NCBI GenBank assembly: GCA_000025185.1
Contig: CP001848.1
Span: 3,960,001-3,992,000 of the forward strand
Length of the DNA: 32,000 nt
Origin: Pirellula staleyi DSM 6068
GTDB lineage: Bacteria; Planctomycetota; Planctomycetia; Pirellulales; Pirellulaceae
Reading direction: 5' to 3'
Position 1 is the stretch's first letter, and every line of letters begins with the position of its first letter. The notes below the pieces were generated by a model that was not told the origin of the DNA, did not search any database, and worked only from the letters and a program-made list of their open reading frames with translations. Position numbers and translations under genes: made by a program. Shown here piece by piece: positions 7,202 to 31,396 of the stretch.

Positions 7202-7205
7202 CGGA

Positions 7206-8309: not shown

Positions 8310-8311
8310 GA

Positions 8312-8683
8312 CTAGATGCACCCCATTCCCACCATTTGCAATTTTTCTTCGATCGCCACGCGATCGAAAGGTTTCATTACATACTCGTTGACACCTTCGG
8401 TGAGCGCTTGCGATACGCGGTCCATTTCAGTTTCGGTTGTAACCATGATGATCGGCATCGCTGCGAATGCTGGATTGGCTCGCACCGAACGAACAAAGGT
8501 CAGTCCATCCATAACCGGCATGTTCCAGTCGACGAAGGCAACATCCACTGCCCCATGCAACTGCAGATGGTCGAGCGCTTCACGTCCGTTGCCCGCTTCC
8601 GCAACTTCGTACTGCAATTCCCGCATGATATTGCACATGATGCGGCGTATCGTTCGTGAATCATCGATAACTAGAGCTCGCAC
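8312..8683 (-). CDS. cheY: Single-domain response regulator CheY
   Basis: 123-aa REC domain: LVIDDSRT, VAFVDWNMPVMDG, IIMVTTE, KPF. GTG start at 8683 with AAGGA about 8 nt upstream. Confidence 0.85.
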   Translation of the reverse strand: MRALVIDDSRTIRRIMCNIMRELQYEVAEAGNGREALDHLQLHGAVDVAFVDWNMPVMDGLTFVRSVRANPAFAAMPIIMVTTETEMDRVSQALTEGVNEYVMKPFDRVAIEEKLQMVGMGCI

Positions 8684-8723
8684 GGTTGTTTCCTTCGAGA
8701 ACAGAGTTGGCTTTGTCGCGGTG

Positions 8724-8757
8724 AAAAAAATGGCGTCGATAGAGACCCCGACTCGCC
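8724..8757 (-). terminator. Terminator-like hairpin plus U7 tract upstream of cheY
   Basis: Minus-strand RNA reads GGCGAGUCG-GGGUCUCUAU-CGACGCC: 7 bp with a 2-nt bulge, followed by A then UUUUUUU (plus-strand A-run 8724-8730). The stem is weak, so this could be an attenuator rather than a full terminator. Confidence 0.35.
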
Positions 8758-8840
8758 GTTTGCCCAGAACGACGAGCCAAAGGCCTCTATCGACACCTGC
8801 CCAAAAAATGAAGTCGAGTGACCTCAGCCAGATGTATTGC

Positions 8841-8889
8841 GTGTAGTGTCGAGATCATCGCTTGCTTGCGACGATCTCTATCGCTACAC
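8841..8889 (-). other. Long imperfect hairpin 17 nt downstream of the mcp stop codon
   Basis: Inner stem GAGAUCGUCGC / GCGAUGAUCUC (11 bp, one G-U) with loop AAGCAA. Outer stem GUGUAG / CUACAC (6 bp) across an internal loop. Read directly from the sequence. Confidence 0.45.
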
Positions 8890-8905
8890 GTCTTTGTGAC
8901 TGGCA

Positions 8906-10663: not shown

Positions 10664-10733
10664 GAATGAGCCCTTTGATTGTTACAGCCGATAAGCAAAG
10701 AAAAGAGAAAGTAGACGAGGGTTAGCGATCGTG

Positions 10734-11177
10734 TTAGTTACGAGACTCTGCCGACAGTTCTAAGACGCGATGCGTCTCGAGGAGCAGTAGCAAGCGATCT
10801 TTCATTTTGTAGGCGCCGCCGATCATGTCGCGGACTTCGCCCCGCAACGTCTCGGGAGGTCGTTCAAAACTGTCGGAGTCGACCTTTTGAACATCGCCAA
10901 TTTGATCGACGAGCAGACTGACAGCTCCTTCGTCGCTACGAACCACCACATTCATAGGGAGCCGATCCGAGGAACGCTCGGTCATCCCCAGTCGCTTGCG
11001 TAGATCAATCGCTGTCACGATTTGGCCACGCAGATTAATCAGCCCACTCACCGCGTCTGGAGCGAGTGGAACACGTGTCATTTCTTGGTAACGAATCACT
11101 TCCTGAACGGTGTGAACGTCGACACCGAAAAGTTGATCGTCGAGAAAGAACGTGCAAAGTTGTCGTGCCGTGTTCAT
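10734..11177 (-). CDS. cheW: Chemotaxis coupling protein CheW
   Basis: 147 aa, CheW-like: LCTFFLDDQLFGVDVHTVQEVI, GLINLRGQIVTAIDLRKRLG, GAYKMKDRLLLLL. Its start overlaps the cheA stop by 4 nt. Confidence 0.9.
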   Translation of the reverse strand: MNTARQLCTFFLDDQLFGVDVHTVQEVIRYQEMTRVPLAPDAVSGLINLRGQIVTAIDLRKRLGMTERSSDRLPMNVVVRSDEGAVSLLVDQIGDVQKVDSDSFERPPETLRGEVRDMIGGAYKMKDRLLLLLETHRVLELSAESRN

Positions 11178-16824: not shown

Positions 16825-18306
16825 CTAATCGTGGGGATGCGCCTTTGGGGCTGGGAGATGAGCCGTCGTGGGGGCGAGCCACTGTTTCCACGGTTCGAAA
16901 GCATGTGGTGTCGAGAGGATGCCACGATCTTTGAGTAGGTCTTCCGCGGCGTGATGGCGCGAAGCGATGTTGAGCTGGGGTACGACACCACCGGCAAACA
17001 GCAGAATCACGAGGGTGAGGAGCGCGATTTTCTCGCGCAGTCCCATCCGGAGCGAAATGCTGGAGATATGCCGAGTGCCGGTGAAGAGTACAAAGTAGAC
17101 TTGCAGCACCGCGATGCCACACAAGGCGGTGGCAATCACCATGGCGATGCCAACGAGTGGATAGGTTCCCACAGCTCCATCGATCAATAGTTCGGAACCG
17201 ACATAGCCCATCGTTCCTGGAAAGCCCACGCTGGCGACGCCGGTGAGCAAGAAGCAGACCGCAAGCAGCGGCATCTGTTCGTAGAGGCCAAGGTAGTTCG
17301 TGAGTTGCAGACGACCAAAGCGAGCTTCCACGGCACGCATGGCGAGGCCAAAACCGGTGAGCGAAAGACTCACGGAGATCCAGGTGCAGAGTGCGCCGGT
17401 GAGTCCTTGGACATTCGCCATTTCGAGCCCCACAAGAATCATGGCCGAGTGACTCATGAACAGGAAGCTGAACATGCGTCGTCCTTCCACCTGCACCAGT
17501 GCCATGCCTGCTGCATAGACGGCAGTGAAGAGGGAAAGGAGTCCCATTCCTTGCATCACTTCAGTGGGAGCGATCGGAACGACGAGTCGCACTGCTGCAT
17601 AGACGCCGGTGAGAGGGGTCATGAAGAGAATCGCACTTCCGAACGACGACTTATCGAAAAAGTCGGGGACCCAGCTATGGAACGGAAAGATTCCGCTTCG
17701 AATGAGGACTGCGAGGAGGAGCGGGATGATGGAATAGAGCGAGTGGCTGTGCGCGGTTGGTCCCCCTTCGGCCATGGCGACGCTCCAGCCGACAATCATG
17801 AAAACGACGAACAGCGTCATGTAGCACATGTACATGCCCGTCGCGCGACCGCGAGTCCAGAGTTCAAAGAAGGGGGGGAGTGTAGCGAGAGTCAGGAGTG
17901 AAATGAGAAGCCACGGTGTTTTGCATGAGAAGGTGGCGAGGAGGATCGATTCGGTGATGAGTGTCCAGAAGAACGAGAAACGACGCCCCTTCGAGCGAAC
18001 TGTAGCGACGGTGGTGAGGGCGAAGAGCATCGCTGCCAGCGGCAAGAGGGGGGCACTGATCTCGTCGAGCTGGAGTAGCTCGTGACCAGTGAGTCGCGAG
18101 AGGAGATGAAAGCGATCTTGGGCTTCGCTCGCCCGCATCCAGATGAAGTCGAGCCAAGTGCAGGTGGCAAGGACAAAGGTGATGATCGAGAACGTAACCC
18201 CGTAGATGCGTGCATCGGTGGGCTCACGAAAACGAGCGACAACCAGTGCGCCGAGCAGAGGAACGAGCACACATAGCTCTAGCCAGGGAAGATGTAGTTC
18301 GGTCAT
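16825..18306 (-). CDS. NuoM/NuoN (MrpD)-like proton-conducting membrane subunit, divergent; third gene of the DAB-like operon
   Basis: 493 aa, polytopic. Family motifs are degenerate: LIRSGIFPFHSWVPDFFDKSSFGSAILF (consensus ..K.P..P.H.WLPDAH.EAPT.GS), FLFMSHSAMILVGL, FPGTMGYVGSELL. Its ATG overlaps the stop of the upstream NuoL-like gene (ATGA). Confidence 0.8.
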   Translation of the reverse strand: MTELHLPWLELCVLVPLLGALVVARFREPTDARIYGVTFSIITFVLATCTWLDFIWMRASEAQDRFHLLSRLTGHELLQLDEISAPLLPLAAMLFALTTVATVRSKGRRFSFFWTLITESILLATFSCKTPWLLISLLTLATLPPFFELWTRGRATGMYMCYMTLFVVFMIVGWSVAMAEGGPTAHSHSLYSIIPLLLAVLIRSGIFPFHSWVPDFFDKSSFGSAILFMTPLTGVYAAVRLVVPIAPTEVMQGMGLLSLFTAVYAAGMALVQVEGRRMFSFLFMSHSAMILVGLEMANVQGLTGALCTWISVSLSLTGFGLAMRAVEARFGRLQLTNYLGLYEQMPLLAVCFLLTGVASVGFPGTMGYVGSELLIDGAVGTYPLVGIAMVIATALCGIAVLQVYFVLFTGTRHISSISLRMGLREKIALLTLVILLFAGGVVPQLNIASRHHAAEDLLKDRGILSTPHAFEPWKQWLAPTTAHLPAPKAHPHD

Positions 18307-19754
18307 CGCGACTTCTCCAGCTGTGGCTCGTTCATTAGTGGCTCGGCAGGTGTCGTTTCCGCACTTGTCACGCTGGCATGATCGACCATATTTTCTTTTT
18401 CGTCGCTGCCGAAAAACGTCGTCCAGCGGCGCTCGAGTCGATCACAAAACCGAAGCGTATCGAGGAACGGGTTCACAAACAGCGTGATGAGCCAACTGTC
18501 GAGATAGCCCTTCTCGATCGCGAGTCGATACATCCACACGCGTGCTGAAACGGGTAGCCACCAGATGCTGGCCGGGGATTGGCGAGCGAGTCGACTTCCC
18601 AGCGCGTTTTCGAGCGTGCCGTAGTCGTAAAGCAGTGATGGCGCACGGATGAATTGCAAGGTGCGAAAGCAGGCGTGACCAAGGATGTGGACGAGAGCGA
18701 CATAACGCAGGGGCTGCCAAAAATAGCCCAGGCCAATGGTGGCAACGATCAGTCCGACTTGGGTGAGGGAGGCAAATGATAGTGCCGATTTGATGTCGGT
18801 TTGTACGCGGCCTGCAAACGAAGCAAAGGCAGCGGTGATGAGTCCAATCGCCAGCACCGCGAGTGAGAGTGTCAGCGAGGCATCGAGCAGTGGGCTGATG
18901 CGTAGTAGTAGAAATGCGCCGAGGTGGACCGACAGCGCGCCGTAGAACACAGCGCTCGATGGTGTCGGCCCTTCCATCGCACGTGGTAGCCACCCCGAGA
19001 AGGGAACGAGCGCGCTTTTTCCAGCAGCTGCAATCAGCAGCATCGCGCCGACGATCAGCAGACTTTGCGTCGGTAGATCGACATGACCTGCGGGCCACGA
19101 AACAGCACCGGTAGCACCCAGCAGATCTTGAAAGTCGCCATGCCCATGCAGGTGATGCATGAGGACCGAAGCAATGAGGAGTGCTGCATCGGAGATGCGA
19201 TAGACGCACCACACGCGCAAGCCATTCCGCACAGGCGCGGCACGTTCGTGAAAGAATCCCACGAGCAAAGCGGATGAGATACCGACAAGTTCCCACCCGG
19301 TAAAGAGTGTTTCAATCGTGCCGGCCAGTGATGCCACGATCATGCCGAGCATGAAGAGCGAGTAGAGGAAGAAGAATCGGTTGTAGCCTGGTTCGCGATG
19401 CATGTAGCGCGAAGCAAAACCACCAATCACACCGCAGAGCACAAATGTAAGAATCGCAAACGGCACCGACAGACGATCGAAGACGAATTTTACATCGAAG
19501 TGGAACTCCGAGACTTCGACCCACTGACCGACGTAGACTTCAACGTTGCGTGGTCCCCAACTGAGCATCAGGATCAGAACGCCGAGTGATGCTACGAGTC
19601 CGACAACGGTGCAGATTTGGCAGAGGAGGTTCGTAGCGCGTTCGGAAAGAGGTGAACTGGCGAGGGTCATCACGCCCATGACCACCACCATCAGCAGCGG
19701 TGCGGCGACCACGATCATGCCCAGCGCGGTGAAGATGTTTTCGTCAGTAAACAT
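18303..19754 (-). CDS. dabB: NuoL/ND5-like proton-conducting membrane subunit, probable DabB
   Basis: 483 aa. Motifs: TGWELVGISSALLVGF, AAAGKSALVPFSGWLPRAMEGPTPSSAV, TDIKSALSFASLTQVG, HILGHACFRTLQF. No long C-terminal amphipathic helix. Starts 23 nt after the dabA stop. Confidence 0.8.
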   Translation of the reverse strand: MFTDENIFTALGMIVVAAPLLMVVVMGVMTLASSPLSERATNLLCQICTVVGLVASLGVLILMLSWGPRNVEVYVGQWVEVSEFHFDVKFVFDRLSVPFAILTFVLCGVIGGFASRYMHREPGYNRFFFLYSLFMLGMIVASLAGTIETLFTGWELVGISSALLVGFFHERAAPVRNGLRVWCVYRISDAALLIASVLMHHLHGHGDFQDLLGATGAVSWPAGHVDLPTQSLLIVGAMLLIAAAGKSALVPFSGWLPRAMEGPTPSSAVFYGALSVHLGAFLLLRISPLLDASLTLSLAVLAIGLITAAFASFAGRVQTDIKSALSFASLTQVGLIVATIGLGYFWQPLRYVALVHILGHACFRTLQFIRAPSLLYDYGTLENALGSRLARQSPASIWWLPVSARVWMYRLAIEKGYLDSWLITLFVNPFLDTLRFCDRLERRWTTFFGSDEKENMVDHASVTSAETTPAEPLMNEPQLEKSR

Positions 19755-19777
19755 GGGTGTGGTTCTAGTTGTCGAAG

Positions 19778-22700
19778 CTACTGTGCAGGGGACGATTGAA
19801 CGGAAGCAAATCCCAGATGCTCGCGCCAGCCGCGATACCAGTCGACCGAGGAGGTCGCGTGAGGGAGGTCCGTTTTCTCAGGGATATAGGGCTCGAATCG
19901 TCCGTTGTGGAACAGTTGCACGTCGCTGCTGTGGGGATCGAGGATGGCAAGTTGGGCCCAGCCATTTTTGAGGATGCGGCCGACAACCGGGTCGCGATCC
20001 ATGATGGCGAGGATCCGCTCGGGAGTCGTCTCAATCACAAACAGCAGTCGCATCGGCTCGTGAATCTCAACACCTTGCACCGGAAGTCCTGTTCGCAAGT
20101 CGCTGGCATAACCATCCATCACTCCAAGCAGCGATGTAACGTTGTGAGGGAGTTTGGTGCCACTTCCCCAGCCGACCGGATCGACAGCCGAGAAGTAGTA
20201 CATCAGGTTGATGCCTTGGCATACCGGCACAACTGGCGCGAGGATGCGACCAAGAATCGAACTGCTGGCATCGTCGGAGTTGGGATCGTAGGAGTGCATG
20301 AAGCAGCGGCGATCCATGTACAAATTGCGAACGCGGCTGCGTCGACCTACAAAACACATGGCGTTCGAGGCATTCCCAAACTCAGGACGCGTTTGAGCAA
20401 GGTCTTCGCTTCGTTCCTCGGCATGAGTGCGAGCCTGACTCGGCGTCATGTCGAGGGGAGCGGAGTAGAAACGGCGACAACGCTCGTGAGCATTGCGGCC
20501 GCATGCTTCCTCGAGCGTCTTGGTCATCGATTCCAGATCACGACGGTGGCTGGCGGGGAGCAAATCGAGATTCGAAAACGTCACGGAGTCGAGCGCGGTG
20601 TTGTGAAGTCCCCCGAGAAACCAAGTCTCTTTCGGGATCGTTAAACCGCGGCTGGCGATGATTTCGCGGACGCGTGGATCGTTGAGAAATGTCGCCAGAG
20701 CGCGAGCGTTGGGACCACCAGCGCCACCGCTGCATGCTCCGCAGTCGTAGGCCGATTTGTGCGGATTGTTGAGGCAAAACGAGCCATGTCCCATGAACAC
20801 AACGAGCCGCGCGAAGTTTTCGGTCAGGCCGATATCGCGAAGCATCTTCTCGCCCATGTTGGCCATCTCGGCAACCGAAAAACCGATTGAATCGTCGTCG
20901 ATTCCTGGTTGTTCGGTTTGACGCTCGAGACGCAAACGGGTGATCGTGGGAGGAGCGACGAAGCTGTTGGCAGTCTTCGTAAAGTGAGCTGTCCAGCGTG
21001 GAAAGAGTACACGTGCGACGAGAGGAATCGACGCCAAAACTCCGAGGCTGGCTGTCAGGAGTGCGCCACTAGCGAGGTTGCGACTTCCACGATGCATGCC
21101 GAGCGAAGCGACACCAAGTGCGCGTCGCGTTTTGGCCGAGCGAGCACTTGTTTGCTGAAAGGGAATGACCGGTTCTTCGATCACCCAATGCTTGGGACGG
21201 ACAACGATGGGACAGAGCGCCGCGAAATTCGCATCCGAGAGACCGCGATAGTAGATGGCTACACCAAAGAAGCCTGGCGCGCCAAACGTTTCGACATCGG
21301 GTGCCACCTCTTCGAGATGGCGACGAAATGATTCTTCGCGAGCATCGATGCAGCAGACGACTTGAAAGCGAGGCTTGTCGACGCGACGCACAGGTTGTGC
21401 CGAGTGAGTCACCACAGCATCGAGGGCCTGAATGCGATACTGGCGTTCGAAAGCCAAATGCAAAATGCGACGTCGTTCGAAACTGTGGAACGATTCGATT
21501 TCGTCGAGCAGCTTTTGCCACTGCTGCTGGCTCAGGCTGCAGAGTTCCTGCGTGTTCCAGCCGAGCACCTGCGCGAGCTGAAAGGGATAGAATGCTCGTT
21601 CTTCGATACTAACGCTGGATTGCTTTAGCGCTTCGGAAAGTTTGGCGGCATACAGATCGGGTAATGATCCGTGATAGCGGAGCTTCTCTTTCGCCAGGTG
21701 CGCGAGGGCCAAACGCTCGAGAATCAAGCGAATCGCGACGAATTCGATCAGCGTGCCCGCTGGGGAGGGGATCGCCACACGATCGCCACGCACTTCCATG
21801 TTCCACAATAAACCGGCCCATCCCTGCAGCGCCAAGATATCGGCGGTGAGGTAGTCCTTCTGATTTTGGGAAGAGACACCGAGCAGCTGCAGTGATTCGT
21901 GGATCGATTCCAGAGGGGACAGCTTACGCGACTGAATCCGCTGAAGCTCAGCCGCTAGACCAGCGAGCCAGCGATCGGGTGGGCCGCCACCTTGACCATA
22001 AACATGACAGAAGGAACGGAAGAATCCCGCATCGCGATCGGGGAGCGACCATTCGGCAAAACCTTGATCGGCAAATGCAGCGCAGAAACGAATGAGGACT
22101 TCGTGCACCAAGATATCGCTATCTTCGCCGGTCGCTGCGACGAGAATATCACGATGCCGCAGCGGTGGTCCTTCGATCGGTGCTGGTGGGCGCAGACCTT
22201 GGACTCCCGATTCACATACACGCCACAAGGCCTGCAGTGCAATGGACTCCCAAGCTTCGCTCGACAGCCGCTCCATCGTGTGACTGCCATACTTGCTGAG
22301 CAGATCGGCGAGGAGTTGTTGCGTCCGCTGGTCCGACGAATCAGGTGCGTAGTTCTCATGCGGAATCGCTTGCCGCCCATCCCGCATGATCCAGTGCTTG
22401 CTCTCACGCAAGAATCGCTCGCGAACATTGGCGGGCGTTTCGCTCCGCATCTTCTTTAGCGAATCGGTCTCGTCCATGTACCAGCGAAGTTCTTCAGCGG
22501 TACCACTTCGGAGTGGGTATCGCAGCATCGCTAGCCGCAGTTCATAGCGCGTTGTCGTTCCAAAAATCGTCTCGCTCGCACGACCGTTCAGGTCGTCAAT
22601 CAGCACTTGCTGCAGATCAATCGTGCGGATTCGACCCTGGGTAATTCGTTCGCGATAACGTTCTTCCGGCAAGTAAGGCTGACAGCGAAACAGCCGAGCA

Positions 22701-22894
22701 CCCTCTTTAAGTCCTTCCTCAAACGGCAGATCTTCTAATGCTTGTAAGGCATTCAAAAACACAAAAGCAGAAATCGGACCTTGAGGAGGTAGGAGGTCTC
22801 CAATGGCGATGATTTGTCGCCGCAGTTCTTCCAGCTCAGGAGGAAGCGACCCCGCGTCGGCGACGTGCTTGTCTGCTGTTGCCGTGGATGACAT
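19778..22894 (-). CDS. dabA: DabA / DUF2309-family protein (beta-carbonic-anhydrase-like subunit of a DAB inorganic-carbon pump)
   Basis: 1038 aa. Motifs: PPQGPISAFVFLNAL, FQVVCCIDAREESFRRHLE, VFMGHGSFCLNNPHKSAYDCGACSGGAGGPNAR. Putative Zn ligands are Cys515 (21350-21352), Asp517 (21344-21346), His703 (20786-20788) and Cys718 (20741-20743). Confidence 0.85.
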   Translation of the reverse strand: MSSTATADKHVADAGSLPPELEELRRQIIAIGDLLPPQGPISAFVFLNALQALEDLPFEEGLKEGARLFRCQPYLPEERYRERITQGRIRTIDLQQVLIDDLNGRASETIFGTTTRYELRLAMLRYPLRSGTAEELRWYMDETDSLKKMRSETPANVRERFLRESKHWIMRDGRQAIPHENYAPDSSDQRTQQLLADLLSKYGSHTMERLSSEAWESIALQALWRVCESGVQGLRPPAPIEGPPLRHRDILVAATGEDSDILVHEVLIRFCAAFADQGFAEWSLPDRDAGFFRSFCHVYGQGGGPPDRWLAGLAAELQRIQSRKLSPLESIHESLQLLGVSSQNQKDYLTADILALQGWAGLLWNMEVRGDRVAIPSPAGTLIEFVAIRLILERLALAHLAKEKLRYHGSLPDLYAAKLSEALKQSSVSIEERAFYPFQLAQVLGWNTQELCSLSQQQWQKLLDEIESFHSFERRRILHLAFERQYRIQALDAVVTHSAQPVRRVDKPRFQVVCCIDAREESFRRHLEEVAPDVETFGAPGFFGVAIYYRGLSDANFAALCPIVVRPKHWVIEEPVIPFQQTSARSAKTRRALGVASLGMHRGSRNLASGALLTASLGVLASIPLVARVLFPRWTAHFTKTANSFVAPPTITRLRLERQTEQPGIDDDSIGFSVAEMANMGEKMLRDIGLTENFARLVVFMGHGSFCLNNPHKSAYDCGACSGGAGGPNARALATFLNDPRVREIIASRGLTIPKETWFLGGLHNTALDSVTFSNLDLLPASHRRDLESMTKTLEEACGRNAHERCRRFYSAPLDMTPSQARTHAEERSEDLAQTRPEFGNASNAMCFVGRRSRVRNLYMDRRCFMHSYDPNSDDASSSILGRILAPVVPVCQGINLMYYFSAVDPVGWGSGTKLPHNVTSLLGVMDGYASDLRTGLPVQGVEIHEPMRLLFVIETTPERILAIMDRDPVVGRILKNGWAQLAILDPHSSDVQLFHNGRFEPYIPEKTDLPHATSSVDWYRGWREHLGFASVQSSPAQ

Positions 22895-23373: not shown

Positions 23374-25641
23374 TCACGCGCGCAGGGCGCGCATCTGACG
23401 GGCAACCTCCACCATGTTCCGGAGCGAAGCCATCGTCTCGGGCCAGCCACGCGTTTTCAGACCACAGTCGGGATTCACCCACAACCGCTCCGCTGGGATC
23501 ACTTCGAGCGCCAGCGTCAGCAGCGACTCGATCTCCGCAGCACTCGGCACCCGTGGACTATGAATGTCGTAGACCCCAGGACCAATGTCGCTCGGATACT
23601 TGAACCTTTCGAATGCCTCGAGCAGTTCCATGCGGCTGCGACTCGCCTCGACACTGATGACGTCGGCATCCATCTGCGCGATCCAAGGGACGATGTCGTT
23701 GAACTCGCTGTAGCACATGTGCGTGTGCAGCTGCGTTTCGTCGGCAATGCCGCTGGTGCTCAATCGAAAGCATTCCACAGCCCACGCAAGGTAGTCGTCC
23801 CACTCCGCTTTGCGCAGCGGTAAGCCTTCGCGCAAAGCGGCTTCATCGACCTGAATGATGCCGATCCCTGCGTGCTCCAAGTCACTCACTTCATCACGAA
23901 TCGCGAGCGCAATTTGCTGACACGTATCTCGCCGCGGCTGATCGTCGCGCACAAAGCTCCAGCAAAGAATAGTGACAGGTCCTGTGAGCATTCCCTTCAT
24001 CGGTTTGCTCGTCAGCGACTGCGCATAACGAGTCCACCCGACGGTCATCGGCTCGCGTCGCGACACATCACCATAAATGACGGGTGGCTTCACACAACGA
24101 CTACCGTAACTCTGCACCCATCCTTGCTGCGTAAAACAAATCCCCTCGAGCTGCTGCCCAAAGTACTCGACCATATCATTCCGCTCCGCTTCCCCATGCA
24201 CGAGCACATCGAGCCCCAGTTCATGCTGACGATCAACCGACAGTCGAATCGATTCCTGCATTAGCGCCACATACTGCTCTCGCGTGATCTTGCGGGCGTT
24301 GAACTCGCTTCGGGCTTTGCGTATTTCGGTCGTTTGCGGAAACGATCCGATCGTCGTCGTCGGAAACAACGGGAGCTTCAGCCGCGCTTGCTGCTTCACT
24401 TTGCGTTCGGTGTAAGGGGTCGTGCGATGCGACATCGCAGCGGTGATCTTCTCGGTTCGCTGCCGAACGCTTGGATTGGTTACACGAACGCTCGAACGGC
24501 GCGAACTCCAAGCAACTCGGTTCTCTGCCAGGAAGACCGTGTCGATTTTCTGCTCCGCAGCATCGGCCAGGAACTTGACCTCCTGGCACTTCTGCCGAGC
24601 AAACGCGAGCCACGAGCGGATCTCTGGATCGAGTTGCGTTTCAAACGAAAGATCGATTGGCACATGCAGCAGCGAACAGGAGGGAGCGATCATCAGCCGA
24701 TCGCTTCCAAGCCATTGCCTGGCTGCTTGTACGGTGGCCATTGCAGCCGTGGCATCGACACGCCAGATGTTGCGACCATCGACGATTCCGAGCGACAGCG
24801 ATTGGTGCGGCCGCAGTCGCCGAGCTACCTCTTGCAGCTGACCGGGGGCACGTACGAGGTCGATGTGCAGCGCGCTGGTCTCCAGTGAGATCGCCAGCTC
24901 TAGATTGTCGCGCAGCGCTTCGAAGTAGGTGGCCAGAAGGATCTTGGTTTGACCTGCAGCGGCTCGCAGTCGCCGATAAGCGTGCTCATAAGCGTCGCGC
25001 TCAGTCTCTGAAAGATCGAGCACGAGCGCTGGTTCATCGAGCTGCAGCCACTGCACCTTGCCATCGAGTTTGCGCAAGAGCTTTTCATACTCCGCGACGA
25101 TCGCATCGAGGTGAGCAAAGCGATCAAAGCCCGGCTCGACCGATTTTCCAAGCTTCAAATAAGTGACAGGTCCGAGCAGGACTGGCTTCGCGCGAAGGCC
25201 CAGTTTTTCTGCTTCCGCAAGCTCCTCGAGTAGCTTCTGCGGCTGCAGTGAAAACTGCTGACCACGCGAAAACTCGGGAACAAGATAGTGGTAGTTCGTA
25301 TCGAACCATTTGCTCATTTCCAGCGGCGCGATTGCAGCTTCGCCACGTGCCATGCGGAAATAAATGGCCAAAGTAGCGCTAGTAGATCCCACGGCAAAAC
25401 GTGGAGGAACTGCGCCGAGCATCACGCTCGTGTCGAGCACATGGTCGTAGAGCGAGAAGTCGTTCACTGCGACGAAATCGATACCAGCCTGCTGCTGAAG
25501 CCGCCAATGACGCTCGCGAAGTTCGCGGGCTGTAGCCTGCAAATCAGCTTCGGCTATCTCTCCTTTCCAGTACGCCTCGAGGCTCTTTTTGAGCTCGCGC
25601 TGCTGTCCGATCCGAGGAAACCCAAGAGTGTGGGTGAACAT
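23374..25641 (-). CDS. metE: Cobalamin-independent methionine synthase MetE
   Basis: N-terminus [18 protein letters not shown]. Zn-site motifs [10 protein letters not shown] and [12 protein letters not shown]. Full two-domain length. The ORF track starts at ATG 25665. The ATG at 25641 matches the conserved N-terminus and has GGAAAGG 7-13 nt upstream. Confidence 0.95.
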
Positions 25642-25795
25642 AGAAACTGCCTTTCCGTTTCCCATTCGCGGGGAACGCTAGAACGTGATGCCAACGCGCA
25701 CAACGTTCTTCGAAAGGCAGCCAAAACGCGGAGAAAACAGAGCTTCCCGACGCAATGCCGATCGAAGCCTGTGACGCGAGGCTGAAGGGAACTAT
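25642..25795 (-). promoter_or_regulatory. Riboswitch expression platform with a putative RBS-sequestering helix
   Basis: On the RNA, CUGCCUUUC (25720->25712) is perfectly complementary to GAAAGGCAG (25655->25647), which covers the SD-like GGAAAGG just upstream of ATG 25641. The intervening loop holds a 7-bp stem AGAACGU/ACGUUCU. Confidence 0.5.
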
Positions 25796-25942
25796 GCGAT
25801 GGGGCGTCTCCTGGCTGATGGGCTTCTCGCGAGAATTTCACCTTCCCAAGCTGCTATAGAGCTCAGTGGCAAAATGCGATTCGCATCCCAATTACAGTAG
25901 CGCGTCTGCGCCGGATTCTCACCGGCTTCCGTTTCCCATCGC
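25796..25942 (-). promoter_or_regulatory. Cobalamin (B12) riboswitch aptamer upstream of metE
   Basis: Minus-strand read: GCGAUGGGAAACGGAAGCCGGUGAGAAUCCGGCGCAGACGCGCUACUGUAA...GCCACUG...GGGAAGG...AGCCAGGAGACGCCCCAUCGC. This contains GGUGAGAAUCC, GCCACUG and a B12-box-like AGCCAGGAGACGCC. P1 helix is GCGAUGGG (25942-25935) / CCCAUCGC (25803-25796). Confidence 0.8.
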
Positions 25943-25951
25943 TAACAAGCC

Positions 25952-25970
25952 GCACCTTACTGGAAGGTGC
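25952..25970 (-). terminator. Hairpin immediately after the PQQ-like gene stop
   Basis: 7-bp stem GCACCUU / AAGGUGC with a 5-nt loop, followed by GGCUUGUU. It fills almost the whole 36-nt gap between the stop codon (25979-25981) and riboswitch P1. Confidence 0.35.
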
Positions 25971-25978
25971 TTGCTCGG

Positions 25979-27400
25979 TCAACGCCCAGCATCGACGCTC
26001 GTTTCACTGGCGGGACTACTCACACGCACCAGCCCTCGACCGGTGCGCACAATCCAGGCGTTGTCGACAGCAGCGACTCCATACACCACATCGGTGGTCG
26101 AGATCGAGCTTTCACCGAGCGTTTCTTTTTCGCGTCCCGTTTTGTAGACCGCGACCGAGCCTTCCTTGCAGAAAAAGAAGATCCGGCCTTCATTGCAGAC
26201 AGGAGAGGTCCAGCAAGCGGCTGGCAAGCGTTCGCTCCACAGAACTTCGCCCGATTCGGCATCGACACACTGAGCCACACCGACGCGATTCACGAAATAG
26301 ACAAGGCCATCGACCACTAGCGGCGACGAATAACCGGCGCTCACACGATTGGATCGCCAAGTTACATGCGACTCAGAAACGTTGCCGGTTCCACCAAGCT
26401 CGATTGCGAGACTACCCGCCTGCGTTGGTGGAGCCGAGGGCTTTTCAGCTTCGGTCGCTCCCTTCGAGGCTTCTCCTGCTGCAGGTGCTGCGCTGGCACT
26501 GCGACGTCCACCTCCACCTGGTTCCGACGACGCGCCGATGATCACTCGATCGCCCGCTATCGTGGGGCTTGGTGTGCTGTTTCCTTGCACGTTGTCGACG
26601 GTCCAAATCAGCTCGCCACTCGAGGCATCGACAGCACGCACGCTACCAGCCGTCGAGACGATAATCAGGCTCTGCCCCTGATGCTGGACTGCCACCGGAG
26701 TGCTCCACCCGGTTTGCGAGGGATGCTCGACTTTCCAGCGGTTTTCGCCTGTTTTCTTGTCGAGAGCCAGAAGATACGACGGTCCGGAATGGGCCACTTG
26801 AAGCACGATGCTGTCGCCGACGATGATCGGTGAACTCGCAAATCCGTGAGGTCCTTTGATCTCGCCGTAGTCTTTCACAAACGAGCGTTGCCACTGCAGA
26901 TCGCCTTGATGCGAGAGGGCAAAGATGTCGCCACTTTCGAAAACGAAATAAACTCGCTCGGCATCAACTACAGGGGTCGGTGCGCCGCGGCTGACAGCGT
27001 CACTATCTTTCACCTGCTGAGTGCCGGGCAATTCTTTCTGCCAAAGGGTGCTTCCGTCCGCGAGCGATATCGCGATTAGATGTAGTTTCTCTTTGTTCTC
27101 GCCCGAAACAGCGCTCACGAAAATTTGCTGCTTCCAGATCACGGGAGACGACTGACCATAGCCTGGAAGGCGAATCGACCAGTTGCCAGCCGCGCGGCCG
27201 CGCATTTCCCACGTTGCGGGTAAGTTGGTCGCCCTGGTATGGCTCGTGCCATCGCCACGGAACCCGGGCCAGGTATCGACCGCCGATACCGCTGGCGCGT
27301 CAGCTACGAGCATCACGCCCAGCATCAGCCAAGCGCAGAGCGCGTTCGGGTTTACGCGCAGAGCGCGTGCGCATCGTGGAAACAGAAAACGTACGTTCAT
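25979..27400 (-). CDS. Exported PQQ-like (BamB-type) beta-propeller repeat protein
   Basis: Signal peptide (..LCAWLMLGVMLVADAPAVSA). Then DTWPGFRGDGTSHT..NLPATW......NWSIRLPGYGQSSPVIW and repeated propeller blades. A low-complexity G/A/S/P/E insert (EPGGGGRRSASAAPAAGEASKGATEAEKPSAPPTQ). ATG at 27400 is preferred over GTG at 27403. Confidence 0.8.
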   Translation of the reverse strand: MNVRFLFPRCARALRVNPNALCAWLMLGVMLVADAPAVSAVDTWPGFRGDGTSHTRATNLPATWEMRGRAAGNWSIRLPGYGQSSPVIWKQQIFVSAVSGENKEKLHLIAISLADGSTLWQKELPGTQQVKDSDAVSRGAPTPVVDAERVYFVFESGDIFALSHQGDLQWQRSFVKDYGEIKGPHGFASSPIIVGDSIVLQVAHSGPSYLLALDKKTGENRWKVEHPSQTGWSTPVAVQHQGQSLIIVSTAGSVRAVDASSGELIWTVDNVQGNSTPSPTIAGDRVIIGASSEPGGGGRRSASAAPAAGEASKGATEAEKPSAPPTQAGSLAIELGGTGNVSESHVTWRSNRVSAGYSSPLVVDGLVYFVNRVGVAQCVDAESGEVLWSERLPAACWTSPVCNEGRIFFFCKEGSVAVYKTGREKETLGESSISTTDVVYGVAAVDNAWIVRTGRGLVRVSSPASETSVDAGR

Positions 27401-27418
27401 CACGAGAAGAACCTGTCG

Positions 27419-27829
27419 CTAGGGAATCAAGAGGGCAAGGGATGTTTGCTCTGCGGTCCAGGTGAACTGCAGAGGCGTAGCTTGGGGACTAGTCATCGCT
27501 ACCGGAACCATCACTCCCTCGGGACTCAGCGACTCAATCGTGTAACGATAAGTCCCCGGTTCGAGAAGCAGCGGCCCCTTTGCCAGAGGTTGATAGAGTG
27601 CAAAAGCACCATCTTCGCCCGTGATCGCAAAGCCAATCGGCTCGTGCGAATCGACGCGAAAGAGGGTGATCTGCAGATTGCTCGGCGTCAGCGAACCACA
27701 GGTCAATCGACCAGGAGTTCCGCCCTCGACAGAGCGAGGGCCAGAACAGCTAAGCAAGAGACTTAGTATGACAACTGCAAGCCAACCTTGCCACATCCAG
27801 GCAAGGTGGCGGCGATTGTGACGTTTCAT
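27419..27829 (-). CDS. Small lipoprotein, beta-sandwich (carboxypeptidase-regulatory-like) type
   Basis: An internal ATG at 27829 gives 136 aa: MKRHNRRHLAWMWQGWLAVVILSLLLSC with a lipobox-like LLSC. It has an ITGEDGAFAL motif typical of small CarboxypepD_reg-like domains. The longer ORF (to 28108) would overlap the upstream gene by 180 nt. Confidence 0.65.
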   Translation of the reverse strand: MKRHNRRHLAWMWQGWLAVVILSLLLSCSGPRSVEGGTPGRLTCGSLTPSNLQITLFRVDSHEPIGFAITGEDGAFALYQPLAKGPLLLEPGTYRYTIESLSPEGVMVPVAMTSPQATPLQFTWTAEQTSLALLIP

Positions 27830-27926
27830 GGGGATGCGATCGACTATCACTGGGTGGCGGCAATGTTGTCGTATTTCGCTAGGAATACGAACATTTTGCT
27901 GAAGCTCAGGGAGTTGGTTACTTGCT

Positions 27927-29318
27927 CTAGTGGCCGGAAGGACCGCCGATGGTTTCGACCTTTGATGGCGCGCCTCCCACCTGGAAGGTTGCGACCTCTT
28001 CGGCACGACGAGGACGAACGAGCACCAGCGTTCCATCGCCAGGATTCGAAAGCAGGGCATGCTTTTGGTCGGCAAGGATCGAAGCATCGTGATGACCGGC
28101 ATGGCCACTCACGCGGCTGCGACCGACTTCCATCCGATGCAGAATCGCAGCATCGGCAAACAGCCCGTCTCGATTGGGGTCGAGTTCGACAACCGACAGA
28201 TAATGCTTGGCTTCGCTCGTGGAAGGATGGTCGTGAAACAGTAGCGCGATCGGCGTTTCGCCGAGGAAATAGCCCACCATCGGTCCCACCGGACTAGCTC
28301 CTTCTTCAAGACCCAGAGGGATCATCGTCGGCTGTGGATCGGTCGCTTGGGCATCGAGAGTGCACAGCGTCGCCTGGGCTCCTTTGCCGGTGACAAACAA
28401 GACGTGATGCCCCAGATTTGTGAACGCGCCGGTGCGTAGTGGTTTGTCGGAAGAGGCCTCTTTGCCGAGCGAGAGGTGGTGCGTCTTGACTTGCGTAGCT
28501 CCGAGGGAAGCGTCGAGATCAGCTTCGACCCAGCAAATCCCATCGCTCGGAGCAAAGAAGACCTTGCCACTGTTCGACGTGGCTCCATGAATGCCGCCGC
28601 TCGGGAGTTTTAGGGAGTATGCCACTTTGCCATCGCTGAATCGACTGACGTCGACCTGTCCCTGACGTTCACCCGACCGGTCGATCCAGCTGCTATAGCC
28701 GACCTTCTTATCCACGGCAGCCAGGGTGATGTGACCACCTCCGCCCGATACAAACTGCGCCTGCTTCACGATCTCACTGACGCCCGACTTCAGATCGAGC
28801 GTCTTAGGATCGATGCGGGTGTAGCCGTTGAGCTTGTCGTTGGCGAGGTAGAAGACGTTGTCGTACACATACAAATGAGCCGGGTTGCCTTGCGCGTTGT
28901 CGAGCTGCGTCGCCACAATTTTTGGAGCCGACTCATAAGTGGAGTGCGAATGATCCCCATGATCTTCGCTCCGAACACCTGAATCGATCAGCACCCAGCC
29001 ACTTTGCAGCTTGCCATCCTCTTCGTCGCGCACGCCGACGAGAATCATCCCTTCAGCCACTCCCATCTGCACGAGCGATTGCTTTTCAGCATCGAGCTTG
29101 GGAAATCCGGCAATCGTTTGCACTGGACCGAGTTTCGGTGGAGAACCGGCGAGCAGATCGGCCCAGCGAACGGTTTTGGCATCGTCGTCTTGAAAGACCA
29201 CACGGGTCAGGATGTTGGGTTCATCTCCACGCAGATCGCTGCTGAATGGTGCGGAGATAAGCAGCAGCAAGAGTGCGAGGATTAGTTTCTCGGCTCGAAA
29301 AAATCGATGGTAAAGCAT
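27927..29318 (-). CDS. Exported His-rich 463-aa protein, possibly a beta-propeller metal-binding / metallochaperone-like (AztD-like?) protein
   Basis: Signal peptide MLYHRFFRAEKLILALLLLLISAPFSS. His clusters EDHGDHSHS (28941-28967), LGHHV, FHDHPSTSEAKHY, SGHAGHHD (28086-28106), and a C-terminal PSGH. Repeated strand-like segments. The family assignment rests on my recollection of HGDHxH motifs and is not verified. Confidence 0.7.
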   Translation of the reverse strand: MLYHRFFRAEKLILALLLLLISAPFSSDLRGDEPNILTRVVFQDDDAKTVRWADLLAGSPPKLGPVQTIAGFPKLDAEKQSLVQMGVAEGMILVGVRDEEDGKLQSGWVLIDSGVRSEDHGDHSHSTYESAPKIVATQLDNAQGNPAHLYVYDNVFYLANDKLNGYTRIDPKTLDLKSGVSEIVKQAQFVSGGGGHITLAAVDKKVGYSSWIDRSGERQGQVDVSRFSDGKVAYSLKLPSGGIHGATSNSGKVFFAPSDGICWVEADLDASLGATQVKTHHLSLGKEASSDKPLRTGAFTNLGHHVLFVTGKGAQATLCTLDAQATDPQPTMIPLGLEEGASPVGPMVGYFLGETPIALLFHDHPSTSEAKHYLSVVELDPNRDGLFADAAILHRMEVGRSRVSGHAGHHDASILADQKHALLSNPGDGTLVLVRPRRAEEVATFQVGGAPSKVETIGGPSGH

Positions 29319-29373
29319 CAGAAAACGCTCGCTGGAAAAATGGAATCAGGGGAGTAATGGGTGCGGCAATCGA

Positions 29374-30426
29374 CTATGGAAGTGCGGCGGTTTCACCACC
29401 ATTGATGGAGAAAATCGAGTGCTGGATGTCGGCTGAAATGGTGGAGGAGAGGAATCGGACGCTTCCATCGCCGAGAGCAACGTTGGCTCCCCCTGGATGA
29501 AAGCTGCGCGGACCAAAGAGGCCGGTGCCATGGATGGTGATGTCAGGAACGCGGCTGTTGGGGGTGGTGTAGCCGTTGGTGAGGACATTCGACGCGAGAC
29601 CTCGCAGCCACGAGATGCCGCGTCCTGTCCCCGCTTGTCCACCGCGCCACGAAGTGCCACTTGCGGCAACAGCGGCGAGGTCGGGATCGATGATCGTTCC
29701 ACTGGGCCAAGCTCCGCCGGTGCTGGTGTAGCCTGGTCCTATTCCTGGCGAGGTACCACTGACACCGAGTGTTTTGCGATAAGGGAAGGTTGGGGTTTGG
29801 CCGGCGCTCAGCACCACATCGATTCCATCGCCACGAATCGATTCCGCTGCGAAGACACTGTTGGAGGTTCCGTCGGTGACGTTGGCAAAGCGAATGTTCG
29901 AGTTGGTGTAAATCATCCCATCGGTGGGATGGCGATCGTCGTAGTTCGTACCCGTTCCACTTCCGGTGCTAAACATGTAATTGTTTCCCGCGAAGTTGTA
30001 CTGCGTGCCGCTGAGCGTGATTTGGTAGACGCGTGGCGCTGGATCGCTGGGACAGAGGAAGGTGGGAACGACCTTTTCAAACACGCTGATATAGGCGGGG
30101 TTCGGAACCTGACTTCCCCCTGCGCCGGTGTAGGTGGGGAGCGCGAAATTGATGAGGTCGAACAGGTTGCTTTGCTCGATGTAAGGGAGCAAACGAGCGT
30201 GGGGGGAATAGCCGGTCGAGCCGGTGTTCATCGGGAAGGCGCCGTAGCTGCTTTCGTAGTTGTGCAGCGCGAGGACCATTTGCTTCATCTGATTCTGGCA
30301 CTGCATCCGCCGCGCTGCTTCGCGAGCCGATTGGACGGCTGGCAACAGCAGCGCTACCAGAACGCCGATGATCGCAATCACCACGAGGAGCTCAACCAAG
30401 GTAAATCCGGAACGTTTTGTGGACAT
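29374..30426 (-). CDS. DUF1559 protein with prepilin-type N-terminal cleavage/methylation domain (H-X9-DG family)
   Basis: N-terminus [60 protein letters not shown]-terminal [19 protein letters not shown] (H-X9-DG). This is the canonical planctomycete DUF1559 layout. Confidence 0.9.
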
Positions 30427-30730
30427 AGCGCAGCTCGCTCAAGAGAAGGTCGCACAGACAGGTTGTTACGTGCGAAGTATATCTAAATGCAATTGATATG
30501 CAATAGAGCTGCAGCGAGATTTGCGAAACACCATTTCGCTGGTTCAGGCGTTCGGGCTGATGGAACGCCAGGGTTGAAGAGAAATCCGCTGTTTTTTGAG
30601 AGTTGTTCAGCAGTTTGCTAGCGCGATGGTGGACCGATCGAGTGGACGACGCAAGCCAGAAACCTAGCCGGCATGGCAAAGACTATTGCATATGCACTGG
30701 TAGTGCGAATGCTTTCAGAGTGCAGATGAG

Positions 30731-31396
30731 ATGGTTGCAGCGCAGGTGATGGGTCAGGCCAATATTCGCCAGAACTTGGCGAACTTACGAAAAGGAAGTG
30801 GCTCTTACATTTGGTGTCGCAGTGCTACATTTCCGCACGCTGCAATCCAAGCTTTTTTGCAAGGAGTGATGGAGTTTTGGCAAACCTTGCTCCACACCAC
30901 TCAATTCGACTACCAAAATGCCACACCGCTATTTATAAGTAGATTACTCGTCTCCCTCTCCCGAGGTGTGCTGCAGAAAGGTTGGAAGGAAAACTACATG
31001 GCTTTTGAGCGGTTGTGGGACCAATTGAACAATCATGTCCTCGAAGAGATTGCTCAAAATTGGGTACTCGAACTGCGAAAGGACCTGCCAGAGGATGATC
31101 GAGAGTACGCATCGCGCGTGAAGGTTGTCATGTTCACTGCCACGCAGATTCAGCTGTGGCAATTTCTGATGACCGCGATCGAATTCGCTCACAGCGAGCA
31201 CGAACTTGCCGAAATCGCCGCTGGTCCCTTGGCCTACTTCCTCCGAAAGTTTGGCGAAGAGTTTTCGCTTCCGCTCGAGACCCAAGCCCAGAGCAATTCC
31301 AAGTTGGTGCAAGCCCTGGGAATGATTGAGGCGACGATGGTCCCCGAGTCGGTTTGGCAGCAGATCCTGACGATTCGAGAAGAGTCAGCATCGTAG
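30731..31396 (+). CDS. Hypothetical protein; the true start may be ATG 30998, giving 132 aa
   Basis: 221-aa ORF. The internal ATG at 30998 has GGAAGGA 7 nt upstream and yields MAFERLWDQL...AEIAAGPLAYFLRKFGEEF...VWQQILTIRE. This resembles small helical immunity-type proteins with an AGPLE/xxL motif; that is a recollection only. GC looks lower than in the flanks by eye. Confidence 0.5.
   Translation: MVAAQVMGQANIRQNLANLRKGSGSYIWCRSATFPHAAIQAFLQGVMEFWQTLLHTTQFDYQNATPLFISRLLVSLSRGVLQKGWKENYMAFERLWDQLNNHVLEEIAQNWVLELRKDLPEDDREYASRVKVVMFTATQIQLWQFLMTAIEFAHSEHELAEIAAGPLAYFLRKFGEEFSLPLETQAQSNSKLVQALGMIEATMVPESVWQQILTIREESAS

Follow-up and report, generated by a model that had tools for sequence, protein, structure and literature searches.

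The closest described counterpart of the system considered here is AztD, the periplasmic zinc chaperone of the AztABCD zinc ABC transporter (Paracoccus denitrificans and Citrobacter koseri; PDB 6CK1, 6CMK, 6N01), whose zinc ligands have been identified (PMC6689063) and which is Zur-regulated. A related logic, in which a Zur-controlled, His-rich extracytoplasmic protein passes captured zinc to a component of an importer, is found in ZinT/ZnuA and PhtD/AdcAII. The Anabaena exoprotein ZepA also scavenges zinc under Zur control, and its neighbours are ZnuA, ZupT, COG0523 and a fur-family gene (PMC10957091); ZepA homologues occur in the PVC superphylum. In this study, we analysed a 32-kb window (the whole stretch of DNA examined) from Pirellula staleyi DSM 6068, and we think it probable that four genes for exported proteins in it form a Zur-type-regulated zinc-acquisition or zinc-starvation operon. 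The folds of ZinT/ZnuA and PhtD/AdcAII are unrelated to those found here, and they pass zinc to solute-binding proteins of the classical kind; the conserved partner here is prepilin-type. ZepA differs as well: it is a 25-35 kDa protein with a beta-sandwich, a new fold and PEP-CTERM sorting, it lacks a DUF1559 partner, and its operator is different.

Translations of the open reading frames place four co-oriented genes on the minus strand with gaps of 55 nt (D-A), 97 nt (A-L) and 15 nt (L-P), just as an earlier note on this DNA had read them. D (29374..30426) is a prepilin-type (PulG-like) member of DUF1559 with 350 aa; A (27927..29318) is an exported beta-propeller of 463 aa; L (27419..27829) is a lipoprotein of 136 aa, probably a transthyretin/CarboxypepD_reg-like beta-sandwich, with its start taken as the ATG giving MKRHNRR...; and P (25979..27403) is an exported PQQ_2/BamB-like beta-propeller of 474 aa. 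The note's claim that every product is exported agrees with the predicted signals: a prepilin cleavage motif in D (G/FTLVELLVV, cleavage at the slash), a hydrophobic Sec-type leader in A (KLILALLLLLISAP), a lipobox in L (LLLSC) and a leader ending AVSA/VD in P. Its speculative link to metE, the next gene downstream, did not hold up. A cobalamin riboswitch (25786-25969, 81 bits) separates P from metE, and a MetE homologue appears in 0 of 87 related loci; with metE under a riboswitch of its own and absent from all these loci, we rejected MetE as a functional partner of the unit.

Protein A and its kinship with AztD

A matches no Pfam or NCBIfam model. Its AF2 model (pLDDT 91.8) was compared with the PDB by Foldseek: AztD chains fill the first nine ranks (E 4e-16 to 1e-12; TM 0.71-0.75, normalised to target) and the first other fold follows at E 1.8e-08, which makes AztD by far the best structural match. 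The profile of the A family likewise has AztD 6cmk and 6ck1 as its top PDB matches. In the profile alignment, the HGDHxH motif of A (H120/H123/H125) falls on AztD H99/H102/D104, and the conserved C-terminal His of the family (H463 in A) corresponds to AztD H408; H120, H123, H125 and H463 would thus form a putative transfer site that keeps the AztD pattern H-G-D-H-x-(D/H) plus C-terminal His. The first pore His also aligns, with H148 in a PAH motif of A lying on AztD H124. The two other putative pore ligands, H196 and H244, are invariant across the family and are placed by invariance and spacing only (48 and 48 residues in H148-H196-H244; 43 and 51 in AztD H124-H167-H218). Judged by its modelled fold and by this alignment, A is a remote AztD homologue in which the zinc-transfer-site ligands, C-terminal His included, are aligned.

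The two proteins also differ. A is only 12-17% identical to AztD, lacks its conserved disulfide, is about 55-60 residues longer and carries an extra GH-x-GHH cluster (H406, H409, H410) that is invariant in the family, as is an Asn-Asp pair at 160-161. The description of A as His-rich was overstated, as its 20 His make up 4.3% of the protein; what stands is that about 9 of these show complete or almost complete conservation across the family.

A module shared among planctomycetes, and its predicted operator

Co-occurrence was counted in the 49 planctomycete A-related loci with full flanks. A co-oriented DUF1559 gene stands in a module with A in 43 of them, a small lipoprotein (L1- or L2-type) in 28 and the propeller P in 18, and the genes can indeed be treated as one unit, as the note had done. 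Since other DUF1559 copies in the same loci amount to about 1 per 40 kb (26 in ~1.1 Mb), the grouping of A with DUF1559 is far beyond chance. The complete order D-A-L-P is found again in three loci (L007, L008 and L010) and is shuffled elsewhere. In its neighbours the module departs from aztD: most genomes place the DUF1559 protein, the small lipoprotein and the BamB-like propeller beside A, and not an ABC transporter.

The observation that the unit contains no transporter is right for this locus, and the whole window encodes no inner-membrane metal transporter; it does not extend to the relatives. In one planctomycete MAG (L023), A stands directly upstream of ZnuA, ABC ATPase and ABC-3 permease genes, an arrangement like that of aztD; Kolteria novifilia (L028) has the order ZIP-A-D; and there is a fusion protein of an ArsP_1 permease with A. 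A second, natural fusion joins PQQ_2 to A (protein P0364). About 8 loci have COG0523 genes beside the module.

Upstream of D lies a predicted Fur-family (Zur-type) operator (30488..30513, minus strand; TGCAGCTCTATTGCATATCAATTGCA), which ends 61 nt before the start codon. Three TGCA elements with 11-nt spacing build two overlapping TGCA-N7-TGCA boxes, the sole two matches to this motif in the window. In 1.14 Mb of related loci, the motif was observed 63 times against ~16 expected, and 50 of the 63 copies sit at module gene starts, with one operator per module; it is absent from the module loci of Gemmatales and Rhodopirellula. Elsewhere the motif precedes ZIP genes (L094, L116, L136), genes for ZnuA with an (Asp/His)n loop (L102/L158 and L207, on contigs not placed in any taxon), fur-family genes (L094, L116, L144, L185), a COG0523 gene (L099) and, in other contigs, a MerC-like gene. 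L094 also has a DUF1559 gene, and the named homologues of its regulator are all planctomycete. Because its other targets include ZIP, ZnuA, COG0523 and Fur-family genes, the predicted operator points to zinc. AztD is Zur-regulated, and A stands behind a predicted operator of Fur-family type that zinc uptake genes also carry. The note's proposal of metal capture therefore gains three independent lines of support: the AztD-like A with its ligands, the operator, and the ZnuABC and ZIP neighbours of A.

The same architecture could instead serve another metal, with a Fur/Mur/Nur-type regulator and with A scavenging iron, manganese, nickel or cobalt. Neither ZIP nor COG0523 is a zinc-only family, and the two regulator loci examined contain an Nramp gene (Rhodopirellula sallentina) and a Fe/Mn superoxide dismutase gene (strain SH139, L210), with the operator copy in the latter lying between that gene and a MerC-like gene. 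The operator itself is a 7-1-7 inverted repeat with TGCA at both ends (TGCAAAT-N-ATTTGCA), a form shared by the Magnetospirillum Fur feoAB1 operator known from a crystal structure (TGCAAAT-C-ATTTGCA) and by alphaproteobacterial Fur/Mur boxes for iron or manganese (PMC4506495). Magnetospirillum, however, belongs to another phylum, and the targets seen here point to zinc rather than to iron or manganese. Long Asp/His loops, as found in the ZnuA proteins behind the operator, are typical of zinc-specific members. Moreover, the closest structural relative of A is a zinc chaperone whose ligands A keeps, a ZnuABC-type transporter follows A in L023, and siderophore, haem or TonB genes do not recur in the related loci. 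We consider a metal other than zinc unlikely.

Protein D and the accompanying proteins

D matches PF07596 (DUF1559; E 7.5e-64) and also Pfam N_methyl, TIGR04294 and TIGR02532, which, together with its prepilin motif, upholds its description as a DUF1559 pseudopilin-like protein. The current NCBI name for DUF1559 proteins is "PulG-like putative transporter". The H-X9-DG element of D (H310-X9-D320-G321) is family-wide, whereas D295-x3-H299 is specific to module copies: D295 and H299 are both present in 100% of the 52 module copies, versus 17% and 0%, respectively, of 23 other paralogues. Solved pilins match only the N-terminal helix of D; for its globular part (~300 aa) no relative could be detected in solved structures, and its AF2 model is of low quality (pLDDT 59).

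D might alternatively be no receptor but a cargo-specific pseudopilin, acting as the secretion adaptor of a type II secretion-like machine, with A (perhaps also L and P) placed at the surface to scavenge zinc outside the outer membrane. D resembles GspG and PulG of type II secretion and type IV pilus systems in its prepilin leader (G/F-x-x-x-E) and in the long, hydrophobic helix at its N-terminus. Genomes carry many DUF1559 paralogues (68-74 each), and in Gemmataceae the gene after D-A encodes a prepilin-peptidase N-domain; a gene of this kind lies under the same operator in Rhodopirellula sallentina. Against this, D scores 43.9 with the GspG model, under its cutoff of 88.85, secretin, ATPase and platform genes are absent from every related locus, and the module-specific Asp-x3-His resembles a ligand pair more than a docking surface. 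Dozens of paralogues per genome also set D apart from GspG and PulG. To this explanation, too, we give only a small chance.

L alone has no significant family match (TTR-52 at E 0.087). In its family, 7 of 15 members match CarboxypepD_reg (PF13620; best E 3e-06), and the family profile weakly matches SdrD and transthyretin-type sandwiches. Among the non-module DUF1559 paralogues of the related loci, 9 of 23 are likewise followed by a small CarboxypepD_reg-like lipoprotein; the pairing is a generic one, in line with the note. P, which it had called a PQQ-like propeller, matches PQQ_2 (E 1.4e-30; 107 bits versus a cutoff of 27.6) and has a low-complexity insert at about residues 295-335. Equivalog models gave no evidence for a quinoprotein enzyme, scoring far under their cutoffs (PQQ-dehydrogenase 59 versus 480; BamB 67 versus 285).

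Many periplasmic propellers are enzymes, and A might be a metal-dependent one, such as a hydrolase or oxidoreductase, in a unit that processes an extracellular substrate and is linked to zinc by cofactor supply only. Its extra His cluster and invariant Asn-Asp pair would suit such a role, and lower Foldseek matches include methylamine dehydrogenase, NirN and a lactonase. Yet AztD and every enzyme fold are about eight orders of magnitude apart in E-value, A keeps both AztD zinc sites, and it is found directly in ZnuABC and ZIP contexts and fused to a permease; an enzymatic A is accordingly quite improbable. That the four genes are neighbours transcribed separately and sharing no function is hardly credible, for although the 97-nt A-L gap could hold a promoter and a scan for sigma-70-like promoters and terminators was uninformative, the same families stand together in dozens of genomes in changing order, behind a single operator per module, and as fusion proteins.

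Proposed route of zinc

Returning to the zinc-starvation operon, we propose the following scheme. The gene layout, the modelled fold and conserved ligands of A, the recurring module and the operator with its further targets are observed, and we infer that the metal is zinc, that Zur is the repressor and that the proteins act on one another as described. A Zur-type Fur-family repressor would bind the TGCA-N7-TGCA operator, which would overlap the promoter upstream of D, and would release the unit under zinc shortage. A, exported by Sec, may capture Zn2+ at two places of its AztD-like propeller. One would be a cluster of His residues within the central pore; the other would be a flexible site made of His-x2-His-x-His and the C-terminal His, from which the metal could be passed to a partner. 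D would be processed as a prepilin, and its N-terminal helix would hold it either in the inner membrane or within a short pseudopilus; D, L and P together may form an assembly in the envelope that keeps A in place or takes over the metal from it. Entry into the cytoplasm would then proceed via transporters encoded elsewhere; in relatives, a ZIP, ZnuABC or ArsP_1 permease adjoins A. DUF1559 is a large, uncharacterised family of planctomycete pilin-like proteins, and one of its members would here receive a first testable functional context.

The four-gene unit and the rest of the window

Translation of the window shows four consecutive minus-strand open reading frames at 25979-30426, separated by 55, 97 and 15 nt, as the earlier note had described. 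They encode the DUF1559 prepilin-type protein D (29374-30426, 350 aa), the 463-aa protein A (27927-29318), the small lipoprotein L (27419-27829, 136 aa counted from the ATG giving MKRHNRR) and the PQQ_2/BamB-like propeller P (25979-27403, 474 aa). The translations also bear out the export signals assigned to each product: a prepilin motif in D with cleavage after MSTKRSG, a Sec-type leader in A, the lipobox LLLSC in L and a signal peptide in P. The label “His-rich” does not suit A, whose 20 histidines amount to an unstriking 4.3% of its residues; about 9 of the 20 are invariant or nearly so in the family alignment.

D passes the models PF07596 (DUF1559; E 7.5e-64, 216.8 bits against a cutoff of 23.3), N_methyl (32.1 against 21.2 bits) and TIGR04294 (H-X9-DG; 43.4 against 19). 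Its likeness to GspG, the major pseudopilin of type II secretion, is confined to residues 6-67 and reaches 43.9 bits against the TIGR01710 cutoff of 88.85. L has no family match beyond TTR-52 at E 0.087; in the lipoprotein family of the window type (L1), 7 of 15 members match PF13620 (CarboxypepD_reg; best E 3e-06). A separate family of small lipoproteins, L2, is unrelated to L1 and has an RRFYW motif. P passes the generic PQQ_2 repeat model alone, scoring 59.3 against a cutoff of 480 for TIGR03075 (PQQ-dependent dehydrogenase) and 66.7 against 285 for TIGR03300 (BamB).

A speculative link between this unit and the downstream gene metE (23374-25665) had been raised in the earlier note, and we reject it. 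A cobalamin riboswitch (RF00174; 25786-25969, minus strand, 81.4 bits) lies between the P stop and the metE start, and no MetE homologue is encoded in any related locus. Because the riboswitch directly precedes metE, this gene has its own B12 control and is an ordinary neighbour.

The remainder of the window, including a two-component pair, is unrelated to the module, by which we mean the recurring planctomycete grouping of A with D, L and/or P genes. An 1851-aa giant protein with Laminin_G, PATR and RTX repeats (94-5649, plus strand) is followed by a chemotaxis cluster, cheR-cheB-MCP-cheA/W (6338-13462, minus strand). Beside metE, a DabA gene (PF10070, E 3e-238) adjoins two DabB-like Proton_antipo_M subunits (16825-22894, minus strand), and these genes look like a DAB-type inorganic carbon pump. 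A DUF6869 gene (30731-31396, plus strand) diverges from D and shares with it the intergenic region that holds the predicted operator; close to the start of this DUF6869 gene, at about 30686-30695, is the perfect palindrome TGCATATGCA. A second DUF6869 gene is found about 1 kb 3' of the module in L007, a 65%-identity relative (12133-12537). A scan of the window for promoters and terminators returned nothing usable.

Kinship of A with the zinc chaperone AztD

By itself, A matches no Pfam or NCBIfam family at E <= 0.1, in libraries that possibly lack an AztD model, and a single-sequence search of the PDB gave no match. Its homologues (845 matches in 90% clusters) form a compact family of about 100 clusters at 50% identity (E <= 1e-30), in which each named source is a planctomycete; the best 120 of the 845 matches are all unnamed, hypothetical or annotated as generic beta-propellers. 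A profile of 30 members gave both AztD crystal-structure sequences as the best PDB matches (E 0.002 and 0.007). When an AlphaFold (AF2) model of A built on the family alignment (pLDDT 91.8) was compared with the PDB by Foldseek, AztD chains filled ranks 1-9 (TM 0.71-0.75, normalised to AztD as the target; E 4e-16 to 1e-12), and the next fold followed at E 1.8e-08. This kinship is visible only by family profile and structure model, at 12-17% sequence identity; A is a divergent AztD branch and not a member by the usual sequence criteria. Cobalamin capture by A, considered because of the riboswitch and weak BtuG matches, is dismissed, as the BtuG matches (Foldseek ranks 43 and 50) trail those to AztD by nine orders of magnitude.

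In the AztABCD transporter, AztD serves as the periplasmic zinc metallochaperone. Its pore site (site 1) holds zinc by His124, His167 and His218, its flexible transfer site (site 2) comprises His99, His102, Asp104 and the C-terminal His408, and zinc is handed to the solute-binding protein AztC from the transfer site only (PMC6689063). In the HMMER alignment, H120-G-D-H123-S-H125 of A falls on H99-G-D-H102-R-D104 of AztD, and P-A-H148 falls on P-F-H124. Position 125 is His or Asp throughout the A family, and the C-terminus is His (Asp in Gemmatales), 2-4 residues past a conserved GG, like that of AztD. H196 and H244 are also invariant, with spacings of 48 and 48 against 43 and 51 in AztD; from this invariance and spacing, they are the putative remaining two pore ligands. 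The AztD disulfide Cys214-Cys231 is not kept, the family alignment of A having one nearly invariant cysteine (C262), and A has an additional invariant cluster, G-H406-x-G-H409-H410. On present evidence, A probably functions like AztD, with AztD-style binding and transfer of zinc as its putative activity.

Genes for a cluster A-I zinc ABC transporter (aztABC) accompany aztD; the window has none. Among the related loci, genes for ZnuA, an ABC ATPase and an ABC-3 permease follow A only in L023, a contig of a Planctomycetota MAG, where the AztD-like gene and these three genes (1428-5453) reproduce the canonical aztD context; no DUF1559 gene is present on this 5.9-kb contig. The Zur-regulated zinc exoprotein ZepA (PMC10957091), which has homologues in the PVC superphylum, was also considered and proved to be an unrelated protein.

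Conservation of the module and its predicted operator

We compared 80 genome loci and 7 loci around database homologues, classifying neighbouring open reading frames by phmmer and all-against-all BLAST. In the 49 loci with full flanks, a co-oriented DUF1559 gene is present in 43, a small lipoprotein gene in 28 and a PQQ_2 propeller gene in 18. The gene orders include D-L-A (18 loci), D-A (11), D-P-A and A-D (6 each), D-P-L-A (5) and D-A-L (4), and the order proposed as one unit in the window, D-A-L-P, is conserved at three loci of relatives, one with a duplicated D. Since other DUF1559 copies in the related loci are so sparse (about 1 per 40 kb), the association of A with DUF1559 is not due to chance. 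Database proteins also include fusions of A to a PQQ_2 propeller (P0364) and to an ArsP_1 permease (P0368). The pairing of DUF1559 with a following lipoprotein, described in the earlier note, extends beyond the module: an L1-like lipoprotein directly follows 9 of 23 non-module DUF1559 paralogues. Therefore, D-L is a generic DUF1559 unit; A, with or without P, is the special element of the module.

Other genes lie around the module in some loci. In the complete genome of the cultured Kolteria novifilia Pan216 (L028, 6705-10614), ZIP, AztD-like and DUF1559 genes are consecutive on one strand; a MerC-like gene lies directly upstream of A in L065, and COG0523 genes flank the module in about 8 loci. 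About 10 Planctomycetaceae loci (L041, L046, L053, L054, L057, L058, L064, L067, L068, L074) add, downstream of A, two lipoprotein families with His/Asp/Cys clusters, neither with a Pfam match; one has an N-terminal QGHDHEEHDH-type stretch and the other has TGHDGDESHDPHECPFC. A cluster of DUF58, transglutaminase (TgpA-like), MoxR ATPase, 162-aa protein and ArsP_1 permease genes recurs beside the module (L088, 1102-7857; also L010, L026, L035, L037, L045, L047, L051), and in L010 and L026 an operator lies between this cluster and the divergent DUF1559 gene. In Anatilimnocola floriformis (L001), a Porin_O_P outer-membrane porin (9923-11599) replaces P after D-A-L, and an ECF sigma/anti-sigma pair is encoded just upstream.

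Aligning the regions 5' of the first module gene revealed a motif, TGCA-N7-TGCA. It is a 7-1-7 inverted repeat, A/T-rich inside and flanked by complementary G/C positions, and its copies are often doubled or overlapping. The related loci, 1.14 Mb in all, contain 63 copies where about 16 would be expected, and 50 of the 63 are at starts of module-family genes (D 31, A 17, COG0523 1, DUF58 1). The only matches in the window are two overlapping ones at 30488-30513, 61 nt upstream of the D ATG; none lies in the internal gaps of the module, a pattern that fits one predicted operator and one transcript. Because the motif has the form of a Magnetospirillum Fur operator that has been crystallised, TGCAAAT-C-ATTTGCA (PMC4506495), it is probably bound by a Fur-family protein. 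A sigma-54 promoter (TGGCA-N6-TTGCA), which has equal spacing, is ruled out by the missing -24 GG and by the palindromic nature of the motif. An OmpR/PhoB-type direct repeat is not preferred, given the complementary flanks (G/C at -5/-4 and +4/+5) and the match to the Fur operator. Within the 8-kb flanks on each side of the module, a Fur-family gene was found in L024 only.

TGCA-N7-TGCA is absent upstream of D in the Gemmatales modules (L018, L022, L024, L025, L034, L042, L078, L081). There, A/T-rich repeats (GGTATTAC / GTAATA, GGTAAAAC) surround sigma-70-like TTGAC/TATAAT elements and may be a lineage-specific operator variant.

Metal, proposed mechanism and the role of DUF1559

A metagenome collection was scanned with the window's version of the operator, CTATTGCAWWNNNWTTGCAWWT. 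About 100 of 120 matches were in low-GC contigs (G+C below 50%) and were set aside as noise; about 20 contigs with G+C >= 0.48 were kept. In these contigs, the motif lies directly upstream of genes for ZIP zinc transporters (L094, L116, L136), Fur-family regulators (L094, L116, L144, L185), ZnuA (L207 and L102/L158, the latter having a long Asp/His loop) and MerC-like membrane proteins (L185, L110). In one low-GC contig, L099, it precedes the gene for a COG0523 GTPase. A DUF1559 gene is also present in L094, and the named homologues of the L094 regulator are all planctomycete. In Rhodopirellula sallentina, four copies surround MerC-like, fur-family and prepilin-peptidase-N-domain genes; in strain SH139, whose module locus (L036) also has the motif, a copy lies upstream of a MerC-like gene beside the regulator. 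Together with the zinc-gene neighbours of A, these targets are the profile of a Zur regulon, and repression of the module would be of the putative Zur type. It is possible that the metal is instead iron or manganese, because the operator form is common to Fur and Mur boxes and the two regulator loci examined contain Nramp and Fe/Mn-SOD genes.

We consider it fairly probable, taking the account as a whole, that A captures zinc under Zur-type control with an envelope apparatus of D, L and P. At low zinc, Zur-type repression at the operator would be lifted; A would then be exported and would capture Zn2+ in the manner of AztD. In the envelope, D, L and P would make up an apparatus that either holds A in place or takes over its metal, and uptake across the inner membrane would proceed via ZIP, ZnuABC or ArsP_1-type transporters encoded elsewhere. 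The gene anatomy, the fold of A and its conserved ligands, the recurrence of the module, and the predicted operator and the other genes that it precedes are what the analysis shows; in this scheme, zinc as the metal, the Zur-type repressor and all interactions are what we infer.

Published work describes DUF1559 as the most numerous paralogous family of planctomycete genomes: Planctopirus limnophila has 68 copies, of which two are essential, and Rhodopirellula baltica has 74. It is scarcely mentioned in the searchable literature, where we found on its function one passing suggestion, based on Pfam's solute-binding-protein label. An AF2 model of D from 33 homologues reached pLDDT 59, and its Foldseek search gave no match at E < 1. 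The module copies of D form a distinct subfamily, 55-82% identical to the window D. D295 and H299, just upstream of the family-wide H310-X9-D320-G, are present in 52/52 module copies and in 17% and 0%, respectively, of other paralogues (n=23).

A more specific role for D, which we regard as unlikely, is that of zinc acceptor: a membrane-tethered, pilin-like stand-in for a solute-binding protein, which would take Zn2+ from A via Asp295-x3-His299 and His310-X9-Asp320 and deliver it to an importer in the inner membrane. Alternatively, D could act in the secretion of A, as a pseudopilin specific to this cargo. Either role is compatible with the prepilin-peptidase-like gene in the module neighbourhood or regulon of some lineages. 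In Gemmataceae, a 385-478-aa protein is encoded after D-A (L089, 11552-12712; L002, 9636-10793; L211, 2312-3748); those of L089 and L211 have the prepilin-peptidase N-terminal domain A24_N_bact, and no Pfam match was recorded for the 385-aa L002 protein. The corresponding gene of R. sallentina lies under TGCA-N7-TGCA and adjoins the fur-family gene. The A24_N_bact protein may be a dedicated or zinc-sparing prepilin peptidase.

We class the finding as a putative zinc chaperone of the AztD type that has a DUF1559 pilin-like system as its new partner. Our literature search turned up no report of a planctomycete Zur box or of AztD-like proteins in Planctomycetota. A candidate Zur box, the first for this phylum, and part of a zinc regulon are proposed here, and the AztD family is extended to a divergent branch, mostly without ABC-transporter context. 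The main value lies in opening the DUF1559 family to experiment: one orthologous subfamily is now tied to an AztD-like partner, a predicted regulator and operator, and a two-residue signature of the module copies, which makes the DUF1559 question testable in the cultured module-bearing strains Kolteria novifilia, Anatilimnocola floriformis and Blastopirellula marina. If D were indeed a zinc acceptor, the 50-100 DUF1559 paralogues of a planctomycete genome would be substrate-specific, pilin-anchored receptors, each working with a small lipoprotein and, if required, its own capture protein, a transport principle undescribed in other bacteria.
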